The notes beneath the pieces are model-generated. The model saw only the letters and a list, made by a program, of their open reading frames with translations. It was not told where the DNA came from and ran no database searches. A program made the translations under genes and the position numbers. From Escherichia coli (lineage in GTDB: Bacteria; Pseudomonadota; Gammaproteobacteria; Enterobacterales; Enterobacteriaceae): 64,000 nt of DNA. Where the stretch lies: the NCBI RefSeq assembly GCF_001677475.2, contig NZ_CP015229.1; one strand, 5' to 3'. Below, piece after piece: positions 3,604 through 28,306 of the stretch; the first letter of the stretch is position 1; every line of letters begins with the position of its first letter.

Positions 3604-4812
3604 TCAGGCTGTCGCCTGAATCATTTCGGTGGGTTCCTGCTTCAACGAGCGGCCTGACTGCACCATCTCTCCACAGGCAAGAACGGCGTGCCCCGCCGCT
3701 AAAATGTTACGAGCGCCATTTACATCGGCGTTCGCTGTATATCCACATACCTGGCATCTGAATTTACTTTGTGACAGGCGATTTTCTTTCGCTGTATGAC
3801 CACAGCACGCGCAACGCTGGCTTGTGTACGCTGGCGGAACAGCAAGCACCTGACCGCCACTCCAGAGCTGCTTGTACTCAAGCTGGCGGCGCATTTCATA
3901 CCAGCCCTGATCCAGTATCGTACGGTTTAAACCTGATTTTGCCCGGACATTGCGCCCCGGCTGGCTGACCGTACCCGCTGCTGACTTTGACATGTTGCTG
4001 ACCTTCAAATCCTCAATGACTATCATTGCGTGGTTTTTACTGACGGTCGTTGTGACTTTGTGAAGGTAGTCCCTGCGGATATTTGCGATACAGGAATGCA
4101 GTCGCTGTATTTTGCGTTTCTGCTTCTGCCAGTTGTTGCTGAATTTGACCTTGCGGCTTAACTGTCGCTGAAGTCTCGCCAGCGTCTTCTGGTTTTTCTG
4201 AAAACTGTTTACAGGCCCAAAGACTGTGCCATCTGACAGCGTGGCGAGTTTAGCCACGCCAGCATCCAGCCCGACCATTGATGCTGAAGGGTGAACCGGA
4301 GTTGATACTTCACTTTCAGTCTGAATACTGATGTACCACTTACCGCAGGACTGGCTGACAGTGACATTTTTCACAACACCCGTGACCTGACGGCTATTCC
4401 GGTAGCGCATCCAGCCAAGTTTCGGCAGAAAAATACGGCTTTTTTCCTGATCGAGCTTAACGCCCTGCGGGTAGCGGAATGCATCATTCTGTCCCCGCTT
4501 TTTGAATCGGGGAAAAGCAGCCCGCTTCTGGAAGAAGTTTTTGTAAGCCCGCTCAAGGTCTTTCAGTGACTGTTGCAATGGCTGTGAGGGCGAATCTTTA
4601 AGCCATTGCATTTCAGTGGCGTTTTTCCACTCAACCAGCCAGGAAGCCATTTTCCCGTAAGGGATGTATTTATTACCGGCCTCATGATTCTCATTCTGAA
4701 GCGCCAGAGCACGATTGAAAACGAAACGACATGCGCCTGCGAAGCGCCTCATTTCACGCTCCTGTTGGCCACCTGGTCTTAACTGGAATTTAAATGCCTG
4801 TAGTCGTTTCAC
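3604..4812 (-). CDS. tnpB: TnpB (OrfB) of an IS200/IS605-family element, RuvC-like with C-terminal zinc finger; putative RNA-guided nuclease
   Basis: 402 aa; N-terminus [17 protein letters not shown] (the KxYKFRLxP-type start), C-terminal CxxC...CxxC (CACCGH...CQVCGY). Confidence 0.85.
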
Positions 4813-4882
4813 AGGCCAAATGATACTTTGGTCTGTGAATAAAGAAACCGATATCCGACGGGGAAGGCATTGTGTTTTCCTG

Positions 4883-5251
4883 ATGCATGTTCACCTGGTC
4901 TTTGTCACCAGATACCGACGTCAGATTTTTGACTATGACGCGACAGAAAAACTACGCACTTACTTTTCAAATGTATGTGCTGATTTTGAAGCTGAACTGG
5001 TTGAAATGGATGGCGAACCAGATCACGTCCATTTGTTAATTAACTATCCTCCCAAACTGGCGATATCCAGTCTGGTAAACAGCCTCAAAGGCGTATCGGG
5101 TAGGTTACTGCGACGAGATCGACCAGATATTGCAGTCAGGTATTACTACAAAGGCGTTTTGTGGAGTCCTGGCTATTTTGCCAGTAGCTGCGGAGGTGCG
5201 CCAATATCCGTCATCCGCCAATACATTGAACAAAAGCAAACACCTGGTTAA
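4883..5251 (+). CDS. tnpA: IS200-like Y1 (HuH) transposase TnpA
   Basis: Contains MHVHLVFVTRYRRQ and HVHLLINYPP (HuH motif) and the C-terminal Tyr region; start uncertain (ORF opens at 4715 but that would overlap tnpB; Met at 4883 chosen). Confidence 0.7.
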   Translation: MHVHLVFVTRYRRQIFDYDATEKLRTYFSNVCADFEAELVEMDGEPDHVHLLINYPPKLAISSLVNSLKGVSGRLLRRDRPDIAVRYYYKGVLWSPGYFASSCGGAPISVIRQYIEQKQTPG

Positions 5252-5381
5252 GTGGAAAACCTCGCCTTATATCCCCGCCCTGAAGGACGGGGTTTTACGG
5301 CGCACCGGATAAATTTGGTTATGCGCCGTCAGCCGTGCTGAAGAATAGGGACCAGCACCCAACGGATGCCAGTCCACACAA

Positions 5382-8320
<2,939 letters not shown>

Positions 8321-8615
8321 TTCCACATCCTCTTTTCTCAATTCTGTAAGTAGGAAGCCTGATTGGTTATGCGGCAGGCCTGGAGCGAGGATAGGAAGAT
8401 GCGATCGGCAGAACATGACGACCCAATGGGATTCGTGATCGCTTTCATGCTTTTCGTTGGGCGGTAGAGATCTACGTTTTCGCGAAAAAGTAGACATCTG
8501 TGAGCACTGGTACACAGCATCGAACACATCTTTAAAAAAAAGATGTTTTTTCAATCGATTAAGCAGAACTTGTGGGCGCATTACCCAGGCTTGCAGGCAA
8601 AAAAGAGATCTAGAG

Positions 8616-9332
8616 ATGATCTACAAAAGCATTGCGGAGCGGTTAAGAATTCGACTTAATTCCGCAGATTTCACGCTAAACAGCCTTCTTCCCGGTGAAA
8701 AAAAGCTGGCGGAAGAGTTTGCGGTATCGCGGATGACCATCCGTAAAGCCATTGATCTGCTGGTAGCGTGGGGGCTGGTGGTCCGCCGCCACGGTAGCGG
8801 CACTTACCTGGTGCGCAAAGATGTACTGCATCAAACCGCCAGCCTGACCGGGCTGGTGGAGGTGTTAAAACGCTAGGGAAAAACGGTCACCAGCCAGGTG
8901 CTGATTTTTGAAATCATGCCTGCGCCTCCGGCCATTGCCAGCCAGTTACGGATTCAAATCAACGAGCAGATCTACTTCTCCCGTCGCGTTCGTTTTGTGG
9001 AAGGGAAACCGCTGATGCTGGAAGACAGCTATATGCCGGTAAAACTGTTCCGTAACCTTTCGCTGCAACATCTGGAAGGGTCGAAGTTTGAATATATTGA
9101 ACAAGAGTGCGGGATTCTGATTGGCGGTAATTATGAAAGCCTGACGCCGGTGCTCGCCGATAGACTGCTGGCGCGGCAAATGAAGGTAGCGGAACACACG
9201 CCACTGCTGCGGATCACCTCGTTGTCATATAGCGAGAGCGGGGAGTTTTTGAATTATTCAGTGATGTTCAGAAATGCCAGCGAATACCAGGTGGAGTACC
9301 ATTTACGGCGACTCCACCCGGAAAAGAGTTAA
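8616..9332 (+). pseudogene. yidP: GntR-family transcriptional regulator YidP (HTH + UTRA) interrupted by an in-frame amber codon at 8874..8876
   Basis: N-terminal winged-HTH part (8616..8873) and UTRA-domain part (8877..9332) are in the same frame, separated only by TAG; combined length 238 codons. Confidence 0.7.
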
Positions 9333-14093: not shown

Positions 14094-15194
14094 ATGGAAC
14101 ATTTCGACGTGGCGATTATTGGCCTCGGCCCGGCGGGGTCGGCGTTGGCGCGGCAGTTAGCAGGCAAAATGCAGGTGATCGCGCTGGATAAAAAGCACCA
14201 GTACGGTACTGAAGGTTTCAGCAAGCCTTGTGGTGGTCTGCTGGCACCGGACGCGCAGCGTTCTTTTATTCGCGATGGACTGACGCTTCCTGTCGATGTA
14301 ATCGCCAATCCGCAGATTTTCAGCGTCAAAACCGTCGACGTCGCCGCATCGCTCACGCGTAACTACCAGCGGAGCTATATCAATATTAATCGCCATGCTT
14401 TCGACTTGTGGATGAAATCGCTGATCCCCGCCAGCGTTGAGGTTTATCACGACAGCCTGTGTCGAAAAATCTGGCGTGAGGATGATAAATGGCATGTCAT
14501 TTTTCGTGCAGACGGCTGGGAGCAACATATTACTGCCCGCTATCTGGTCGGTGCCGATGGCGCAAACTCGATGGTGCGGCGACATCTCTACCCGGATCAT
14601 CAAATCCGTAAATATGTCGCTATCCAGCAGTGGTTCGCAGAGAAACATCCGGTGCCGTTCTACTCCTGCATCTTTGATAATTCGATAACTAACTGTTATT
14701 CATGGAGTATCAGCAAAGACGGTTATTTTATCTTTGGCGGTGCCTATCCAATGAAAGACGGTCAGACGCGTTTCGCGACGCTGAAAGAGAAAATGAGCGC
14801 CTTTCAGTTCCAGTTTGGTAAGGCGGTGAAAAGCGAAAAATGCACGGTGCTGTTTCCCTCACGCTGGCAGGATTTTGTCTGCGGTAAGGACAACGCCTTT
14901 CTGATTGGCGAAGCGGCGGGATTTATCAGCGCCAGCTCGCTGGAAGGGATTAGCTATGCGCTGGATAGCGCAGAGATTCTGCGTGCGGTGTTCCTGAAAC
15001 AGCCGGAGAAGAGCAACGCCGCTTACTGGCGCGCCACCCGCAAACTGCGTTTAAAACTCTTCGGCAAGATAGTAAAAAGCCGATGCCTGACCGCACCGGC
15101 TTTAAGAAAGTGGATTATGCGCAGTGGTGTGGCGCATATTCCACAGTTGAAAGATTATCCAACGCGCTTCACATCGCCCACCAGCAGGATGTAA
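14094..15194 (+). CDS. cbrA: FAD-dependent oxidoreductase CbrA (colicin E2 tolerance protein)
   Basis: N-terminal FAD-binding [24 protein letters not shown]; the 3' end overlaps the convergent dgoT remnant. Confidence 0.8.
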
Positions 15195-15268
15195 GAGAGT
15201 GCGCCAATCAACGCGACGACGGAGATATAAACCAGTGCAGGCGCGAAGCCATAGCCTTGCAACAGATA
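15156..15268 (-). pseudogene. dgoT: 3'-terminal remnant (about 37 codons) of the D-galactonate MFS transporter gene dgoT; the rest of dgoT and dgoDAKR are absent
   Basis: Minus-strand frame reads [45 protein letters not shown], a terminal MFS transmembrane helix with no upstream ORF. Confidence 0.5.
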
Positions 15269-15404
15269 TTAGTCCACAAAAAAACAACTCATAAGAAAAG
15301 GTCTTATATCGGGCAGAAATCTGAAAAGGGAGATCAGGCGCTAAACAGGAGGGAAAGAAGAGTATGCTTTCAACGGCTTAGCGATCTTGTTTAAAGGATT
15401 AATC

Positions 15405-16061
15405 ATGAATTTGAATTTTAAGGGATTTTTTAAGGCTGCCGGTTTATTCCCACTGGCGCTGATGCTTTCGGGCTGTATCTCGTATGCCCTGGTTTCCCAT
15501 ACCGCAAAGGGTACTTCAGGAAAGTATCAATCGCAGTCAGACACCATCACGGGGCTATCGCAGGCAAAGGATAGTAATGGAACAAAAGGCTATGTTTTTG
15601 TAGGGGAATCGCTGGATTACCTTATCACTGATGGTGCCGATGACATCGTTAAGATGCTCAATGATCCAGCACTTAACCGGCACAATATTCAGGTTGCTGA
15701 TGACGCAAGATTTGTTTTAAATGCGGGGAAAAAGAAATTTACCGGCACAATATCGCTTTACTACTACTGGAATAACGAAGAAGAAAAGGCACTGGCAACG
15801 CATTATGATTTTGCCTGTGGTGTTCAACACTGTACCAGGTCACTGGAAAACCTAAAAGGCACAATCCATGAGAAAAATAAAAACATGGATTACTCAAAGG
15901 TGATGGCGTTCTACCATCCATTTAAAGTGCGATTTTATGAATACTATTCACCCAGAGGCATTCCGGATGGTGTTTCCGCAGCATTACTGCCAGTGACTGT
16001 TACGCTGGACATCATTACTGCACCGCTGCAATTTCTGGTTGTATATGCAGTAAACCAATAA
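15405..16061 (+). CDS. yidX: Lipoprotein YidX
   Basis: Starts [27 protein letters not shown] (lipobox LSGC). Confidence 0.8.
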
Positions 16062-28158: not shown

Positions 28159-28182
28159 CTCGTCTAAATTGATATAAAGGGC

Positions 28183-28240
28183 ACTGTTCCGTTCTGGGGA
28201 AACTAACTATCAGAACGGAACAGCGCTTGTTTTTTTATGA
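28183..28240 (+). terminator. Rho-independent terminator after mnmE
   Basis: Long inverted repeat CTGTTCCGTTCTG...CAGAACGGAACAG followed by a T-run. Confidence 0.7.
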
Positions 28241-28306
28241 GTATTCTGCACCAAAACTGCATTTGCTACTGGCTGGAGCGACTTTAAACACCTTGCAGTC
28301 CTGTCT

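Follow-up and report, generated by a model that had tools for sequence, protein, structure and literature searches.

A nonsense pseudogene of the GntR/HutC-type regulator gene yidP beside an intact alpha-glucoside PTS operon in Escherichia coli

Alpha-glucoside PTS systems have been described that include the cryptic glvCBG of Escherichia coli K-12 (PMC5309279). The pair of genes standing beside the regulator gene yidP, which encode an EIICB component and a GH4 enzyme, is of this type, as are aglA/aglB of Klebsiella pneumoniae, glvA/glvC of Bacillus subtilis and glvCBG itself. On the function of YidP, the only literature found consists of lists of uncharacterised regulators (PMC4797297, PMC6055005). 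Its closest solved structures are those of NagR/YvoA of B. subtilis (E 3e-24) and DasR of Streptomyces (E 1e-13), which have the same architecture of a winged helix-turn-helix (wHTH) domain joined to a UTRA domain. These two proteins repress genes of sugar uptake and catabolism, are released by sugar phosphates, and recognise operators with half-sites of the GGTCTA type (PMC4333415). The isolated DNA-binding domain of NagR (residues 1-75) is stable and specific for the operator, with an affinity in the nanomolar range as against the picomolar range for the full-length dimer (PMC4333415).

A second body of work bears on how such regulators may be lost. Changes of C to T at the second C of CCAGG that create amber codons are a hotspot of 5-methylcytosine deamination, as in lacI, and Vsr very-short-patch repair normally works against it (PMC12606429; PMC2715241).

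Here we analyse a yidP gene interrupted by a single amber codon in the window, the whole stretch of 64,000 nucleotides of E. coli DNA under study. First, we describe the mutation as observed, together with its ancestral state and its context in the sequence, its repeated occurrence, the domain boundary at which it lies and the synteny of the locus. Second, we propose in conditional terms an origin at a Dcm site, an operator for YidP and a direction for the effect on the neighbouring operon. Our reading is that a C-to-T amber at Gln 87 has removed YidP as a regulator, and with it YidP control of the operon, in a case of routine decay; we give this whole account a probability of about 0.85. The genes and parts of genes concerned are the following, with the evidence for each in brackets.

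5382..6704, minus strand: intact gene for a GH4 6-phospho-alpha-glucosidase of the glvA/aglB type, 440 aa (comparison with GMF065 WP_001579287.1)
6704..8320, minus strand: intact gene for an alpha-glucoside PTS EIICB of the glvBC/aglA type, 538 aa (TIGR02005, 958 bits against a cut-off of 607)
8616..9332, plus strand: yidP pseudogene for a GntR/HutC-type regulator, 238 codons including the internal stop (translation, K-12 alignment, PGAP naming)
8616..8873, plus strand: coding part still translated, 86 aa, comprising the wHTH (GntR, 3-64) and linker (Pfam coordinates)
8873..8877: CTAGG, a mutated Dcm site (CCAGG in the CGC CAG GGA allele), in which T8874 replaces the methylatable inner C (sequence context)
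8874..8876, plus strand: in-frame amber TAG at codon 87, ancestral CAG for Gln (K-12 and GMF065 alignment, orthologues)
8877..9329, plus strand: untranslated remnant of the UTRA effector-binding and dimerisation domain, residues 88-238 (ORF list, Pfam)

The yidP frame runs on the plus strand from ATG at 8616 to TAA at 9330..9332, a total of 239 codons, and translation finds exactly one internal stop in it, the TAG at codon 87. A reading made beforehand from the sequence alone had held that the HTH and UTRA halves share one frame and are split only by this TAG, and both the translation and the ORF list, where the halves appear as 8457..8876 and 8898..9332 in a common frame, confirm it. The 238 codons that it gave as the length of YidP are borne out by a gapless alignment of 717 nt to K-12 yidP, 99% identical with 9 substitutions, among them an adjacent pair that turns CGG CAG of K-12 into CGC TAG of the window. 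Its identification of the gene as yidP, a regulator of the GntR/UTRA (HutC) type, agrees with the K-12 alignment and with PGAP, which across thousands of E. coli genomes calls the gene yidP and its product a GntR family regulator.

In intact YidP, Pfam places the GntR wHTH domain (PF00392) at residues 3-64 (E 7e-21), entirely before the stop, and the UTRA domain (PF07702) at residues 87-224, with the result that the TAG stands in place of the first UTRA residue. The truncated regulator without effector domain that had been envisaged is thus what the domain map gives, and the precomputed Pfam assignment of the recorded 86-aa product is GntR. The wHTH domain by which the GntR/HutC family is recognised is present, and the UTRA domain, encoded in frame past the TAG, is missing from the same polypeptide; the window's yidP is a member of the family by descent, with a product that falls outside its two-domain definition. 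Lying at the boundary of wHTH and UTRA, the TAG is predicted to remove exactly the effector-binding and dimerisation domain.

The adjacent PTS genes had been described as divergent and intact, and so they proved. Both are full length; the EIICB protein is identical to the intact 538-aa EIICB of strain GMF065, and the GH4 protein shows 2 aa differences in 440 from GMF065 WP_001579287.1, annotated as a 6-phospho-alpha-glucosidase. The K-12 copies carry an internal stop (EIICB) and a frameshift (GH4). The association is a general one, as EIICB and GH4 lie immediately upstream of yidP and divergent from it in 65/65 of the yidP loci from other species that have enough flank, and Proteus, which lacks the gene's other neighbour yidE, keeps the EIICB-GH4 pair.

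Among 5,426 complete genomes, the intact yidP allele closest to that of the window belongs to strain GMF065, which reads CGC CAG GGA where the window reads CGC TAG GGA and differs at 2 other sites in 717 nt. The yidP genes of K-12 and GMF065 are both intact. In orthologues from other species residue 87 is Gln in 62 of 69, and 68 of the 69 are one uninterrupted ORF of 234-250 aa, nowhere showing the arrangement of a genuine stop followed by a separate gene that would speak for two natural genes. Alignment to the K-12 and GMF065 alleles decides between the two codons, CAG and TGG, that had been guessed as ancestral: by this comparison codon 87 is ancestrally CAG (Gln), changed C-to-T into TAG.

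Counts of alleles in complete genomes were made with 41-mers centred on the variable dinucleotide, for which only exact megablast matches were taken; a 61-mer around the stop was unsuitable, its one-mismatch matches fitting CGC CAG or CGG TAG alike. The exact CGC TAG 41-mer occurs in 0 complete RefSeq genomes, and a one-base substitution is the sort of difference that a sequencing or assembly error yields, in which case base 8874 would truly be C and yidP intact. Against this, the same T is found in two assemblies of the same lineage that were deposited independently and have near-identical flanks, GCA_018682865.1 (L003; 1 mismatch to the window in 12,261 nt) and GCA_002516285.1 (L011; 1 mismatch in 7,548 nt). 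Their yidP genes are identical to that of the window, TAG included, and L003 carries the window's IS200/IS605 insertion too. In NCBI, ENA and Logan, 50 contigs also encode the exact 86-aa product, and the ~40 other genes common to the 64 kb and K-12 are full length, free of frameshift or stop noise. Because the TAG is common to independent assemblies and these neighbouring genes are full length, an artefact is effectively excluded, and we attach almost no weight to it; to judge from the assemblies, the lesion is effectively a real, heritable base change and not sequencing noise. A decaying genome of the Shigella kind was considered as a setting and rejected, given the ~40 full-length shared genes and a single IS (IS200/IS605) in the window.

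The immediate context of the change suggests how it arose. Because codon 86 is CGC in this allele, codons 86/87 of the intact gene form a CCAGG Dcm site, and comparison of GMF065 with the window puts the C-to-T change at the inner C of an ancestral CCWGG. Since the mutated base is that inner C, 5-methylcytosine deamination is its most likely origin, and we favour, with some reserve, the view that the window allele was produced by it. The dcm and vsr genes map elsewhere on the chromosome, outside the window. The CGC CAG allele of codons 86/87 is carried by 592 of about 4,271 complete genomes (~14%), and well-separated lineages with TAG at codon 87 number 4 on this CGC (Dcm) background against 1-3 on the commoner CGG, in small counts uncorrected for clonality; the CGC background makes up 4 of the 5-7 separable codon-87 amber lineages retrieved. 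Two further CAG codons of yidP, 94 and 225, lie in a CCAGG context, and both recur as CTAGG ambers on several backgrounds. Ambers were found on 98 + 190 contigs at codon 94 and on 270 at codon 225, with 0-70 at the non-Dcm Gln codons, contig counts of nonsense alleles being confounded by clonal sampling. The commonest yidP truncation, a stop at W52 (305 contigs), is unconnected with Dcm and speaks against over-reading this excess. CGG TAG alleles, in which codon 87 is amber on a background that has no Dcm site, show that a Dcm origin is not required. The polymorphism of codons 86/87, together with codons 94 and 225, offers a clean natural test of the share of Dcm in gene loss in the wild.

The amber at codon 87 is not confined to this lineage. 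In the complete RefSeq genomes, CGG TAG is found in 2 of about 4,271, LR-25 (NZ_AP027500.1) and PSJ-36 (NZ_AP027648.1), in both of which the PGAP annotation treats yidP as pseudogenic through an 'internal stop' at codon 87. RefSeq already annotates nonsense pseudogenes like the window's yidP, with the stop at the same codon, and the gene in the window should carry the flag for a pseudogene with internal stop that PGAP applies elsewhere. The genes of LR-25 and PSJ-36 resemble that of the window in the codon, the CAG-to-TAG change and the 86-aa product. They differ in their CGG TAG haplotype, in 10 other synonymous or near-synonymous differences, in 43 SNPs per 3.7 kb of flank, in a frameshifted GH4 gene and in a background without a Dcm site, and by these differences their amber and that of the window are to be read as independent events. 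In LR-25 (L012), the EIICB-yidP intergenic region also contains an IS4-like ISVsa5 transposase gene (NZ_AP027500.1, 1842..3050), a second hit on that regulatory unit.

An amber private to the window's strain was considered and rejected, as a look-up of the exact protein finds many contigs and several haplotypes: the 50 contigs noted above stand against at least 1000 with full-length YidP, and the codon-87 amber lies on at least five unrelated yidP haplotypes. Amber-bearing loci differ from each other by 34-68 SNPs per 3.7 kb, and the window stands at a shorter distance from intact GMF065 (37 SNPs per 3.7 kb) than from the other amber lineages. In the amber allele of L008 a SNP lies 11 nt away from the stop, and none of the amber-bearing loci has a secondary lesion downstream of the stop. 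Because the haplotypes are divergent, an intact allele is nearer and secondary lesions are absent, the codon-87 amber must have arisen repeatedly and recently; a single ancient amber spread by recombination was rejected on the same distances, the nearer GMF065 allele, the SNP 11 nt off and the lack of later lesions.

Nor is codon 87 the only site at which yidP is cut short. Ten further nonsense products of YidP can be reached in one step, and nine of them are on record, with 23-305 contigs each, and several of these alleles were verified in DNA on multiple backgrounds. The recurrent stops (L093-L109) include W52 (TAG and TGA), Q94 (AGC TAG GTG) and Q225 (TAC TAG GTG), the last common in Shigella flexneri records, and a 93-aa truncation of YidP on an A45D background accounts for 190 contigs. 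The whole of yidP and the adjacent PTS genes is absent from about 1,140 of 5,417 complete E. coli genomes (~21%). The locus is a weakly selected, accessory one that decays differently by lineage, and the loss described here is routine decay of a regulator.

The same recurrence could be taken as the mark of positive selection, inactivation of YidP being favoured where it turns on an intact alpha-glucoside PTS operon. Independent codon-87 ambers on several haplotypes would fit this, as would the return of the W52, Q94 and Q225 stops on different backgrounds and the intact GH4 and EIICB genes of the window lineage, L004, L008 and L010. Half of the amber loci (L002, L005, L006, L007, L009), however, have the truncated GH4 of the K-12 type and would gain nothing from derepression. 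The nonsense alleles are, moreover, rare, at tens to hundreds of contigs each against at least 1000 for the full-length protein, with the codon-87 amber in just 2 of about 4,271 complete genomes, and with hundreds of thousands of genomes and weak selection, recurrence is expected at every mutable codon. We therefore regard adaptive loss as unlikely and keep to routine decay. Hardly stronger is the case for a wider proposal, that, genome for genome, ambers are several-fold commoner on the Dcm allele of yidP, and similarly at codons 94 and 225, and/or that YidP is repeatedly lost under selection where the alpha-glucoside PTS is intact, enabling use of sucrose isomers or isomaltose; we mention it as speculation.

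The region between EIICB and yidP was compared across about 36 species (loci L016-L081). Three elements stand out in this alignment.

8434..8449: conserved CRP-like site, CGTGATCGCTTTCATG (phylogenetic footprint)
8469..8495: conserved dyad GATCTAC-N14-GTAGAC, candidate YidP operator (inverted repeat 8466-8499, phylogenetic footprint)
8604..8613, plus strand: AGAGATCTAG, the yidP Shine-Dalgarno sequence fused to a third half-site of the GTCTA type (conserved in alignment)

Across the species the dyad reads GTCTAC-N14-GTAGAC; its arms are conserved and its spacer is variable in 36 species from Citrobacter to Proteus, and its half-sites resemble the GGTCTA half-sites of the HutC/DasR type, which makes it a candidate operator that YidP may bind. 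The E. coli half-sites have GATCTA in place of GGTCTA, giving Dam (GATC) sites in two of them. The element before yidP reads AGAG(G/A)TC(T/C)A in most aligned species and AGAGGTATA in Proteus, and the overlap of a half-site with the Shine-Dalgarno sequence makes autoregulation possible. The CRP-like site lies ~60 nt from a conserved -10-like TATCCT (8393..8388, minus strand), which is oriented to the PTS genes. Because a simple consensus scan of 8250..8700 returned no consensus sigma-70 promoter or terminator, the promoter is placed by the phylogenetic footprint, which suggests TATCCT as the -10 element of the PTS genes. Relative to this putative promoter the dyad is upstream of the CRP-like site, where a bound protein would offer no obvious block to RNA polymerase. 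Synteny, the conserved intergenic footprint and the half-sites like those of HutC/DasR together tie YidP to the operon, and make its regulation by YidP plausible.

The course of events would then be as follows. In an ancestor of the lineage, the 5-methylcytosine at CCAGG would have deaminated to thymine and escaped very-short-patch repair, a C-to-T change that made codon 87 of yidP TAG in place of CAG. Translation would stop past residue 86, leaving a winged-helix stub without the UTRA domain, the part by which HutC-type regulators dimerise and bind their sugar-phosphate effector; by analogy with NagR, such a stub might fold and recognise the operator about a thousand-fold more weakly, deaf to the inducer. 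The regulatory function of YidP would effectively be lost, and with it control of the alpha-glucoside PTS operon, most probably in the form of constitutive, CRP-dependent expression. Derepression is to be expected if YidP is a repressor, because most HutC members repress and the PTS operon is intact here. We lean towards it only slightly, because the dyad is upstream of the CRP-like site and a consensus promoter is absent.

The stub need not be null, and might act as a weak, non-inducible repressor that leaves the operon partly repressed and unresponsive to sugar, not derepressed. It retains the whole GntR domain (3-64) and linker, the isolated NagR domain (1-75) folds and binds its operators specifically with nanomolar affinity (PMC4333415), and the half-site copy over the yidP ribosome-binding site may permit autoregulation. 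Without the dimerising domain, however, affinity is about 1000-fold lower (PMC4333415), and both transcripts with nonsense codons and short fragments tend to be unstable in the cell. Nor is there any sign of selection for the fragment, with stops also at codon 52, within the wHTH. An active stub is accordingly doubtful, and effective loss of YidP remains our reading.

Another possibility is that the two halves still cooperate, the UTRA part being re-initiated at GTG 8898 or ATG 8916, or the amber being read through. The mechanical ORF within the remnant begins at GTG 8898, just 22 nt past the stop, and encodes 144 aa, and no amber-bearing locus has a disruption in the frame downstream, gene callers listing this 144-aa UTRA ORF in all of them. 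Yet the GTG has no evident Shine-Dalgarno sequence and ATG 8916 none either, a free UTRA would lack the DNA-binding part just as the stub lacks the dimer interface, and no split orthologue was found among 69 species; each of the independent mutations is young, which accounts for the frame downstream being still intact. As for decoding of the amber, E. coli has no amber-decoding system, and the 64-kb window contains no tRNA or suppressor genes. A suppressor of the supE type inserts Gln at UAG, here the original residue, and would restore wild-type YidP; suppressors are rare among natural isolates. If ribosomes naturally read through UAG at a low level, a little full-length YidP could persist. 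A functional split gene is thus very improbable, and we retain the pseudogene.

Several other features of the window are recorded here in their own right. Between positions 1 and 24000 the best identity among 5,426 complete E. coli genomes is 98.4%, with no close relative there. An IS200/IS605 element at 3604..5251, made up of TnpB (3604..4812, minus strand; a 402-aa RNA-guided nuclease) and the Y1 transposase TnpA (4820..5251, plus strand), occupies the place held in K-12 by yidI, yidJ, yidK and most of yidL. Of yidL, roughly the final 77 nt survive beside the GH4 gene, with the junction near 5309, an arrangement common to the window and GCA_018682865.1. The D-galactonate operon dgoRKADT is missing at 15155..15405: after cbrA come ~105 nt of the dgoT 3' end, and directly after these yidX (15405..16061). 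A 2.6-kb insertion relative to K-12 lies at 28160..30783, between mnmE and tnaC/tnaA, and includes a 728-aa ORF (28307..30493, minus strand) with no NCBIfam match and a marginal PADLOC match to HamA/DUF1837 (E 1e-4), which may be a defence-type accessory gene. At 39885..47300 the K-12 block bglGFBH-yieL-yieK-cbrC-cbrB is replaced by about 7.4 kb, which may be the known polymorphism of the bgl/Z5211-Z5214 locus. The ORFs of this replacement, of 704 aa (40021..42135, minus strand; marginal AbiEii match), 207 aa, 194 aa and 839 aa (44369..46888, minus strand), have no NCBIfam matches, and for the window's other accessory ORFs NCBIfam and PADLOC yielded no matches or marginal ones.

As a single, lineage-specific inactivation of an uncharacterised accessory regulator, the finding is of little significance in itself. 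The lineage is a natural yidP-null with an intact glv/agl-type operon, and as such provides handy material for work on the targets of YidP and on the use of alpha-glucosides (isomaltulose).

Set beside the known systems, the locus shows both likeness and difference. The compact palindrome of 16 bp recognised by NagR and DasR differs from the candidate operator of YidP with its 14-nt spacer. The amber hotspots of lacI at Dcm sites were reportedly found by Coulondre, Miller, Farabaugh and Gilbert in 1978 in laboratory mutation spectra of K-12. The likeness to yidP is close, with an in-frame CAG in which the second C of CCAGG becomes T to give a CTAGG amber, and three such codons in yidP (87 on the CGC allele, 94 and 225) that are all mutated in public genomes; the difference is that those were laboratory spectra, whereas yidP presents standing variation in natural isolates, for which the context points to the mechanism. 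With the glv system of K-12, finally, the relation is one of mirror images: there an intact regulator stands beside broken structural genes, while the window has a broken regulator beside intact structural genes.
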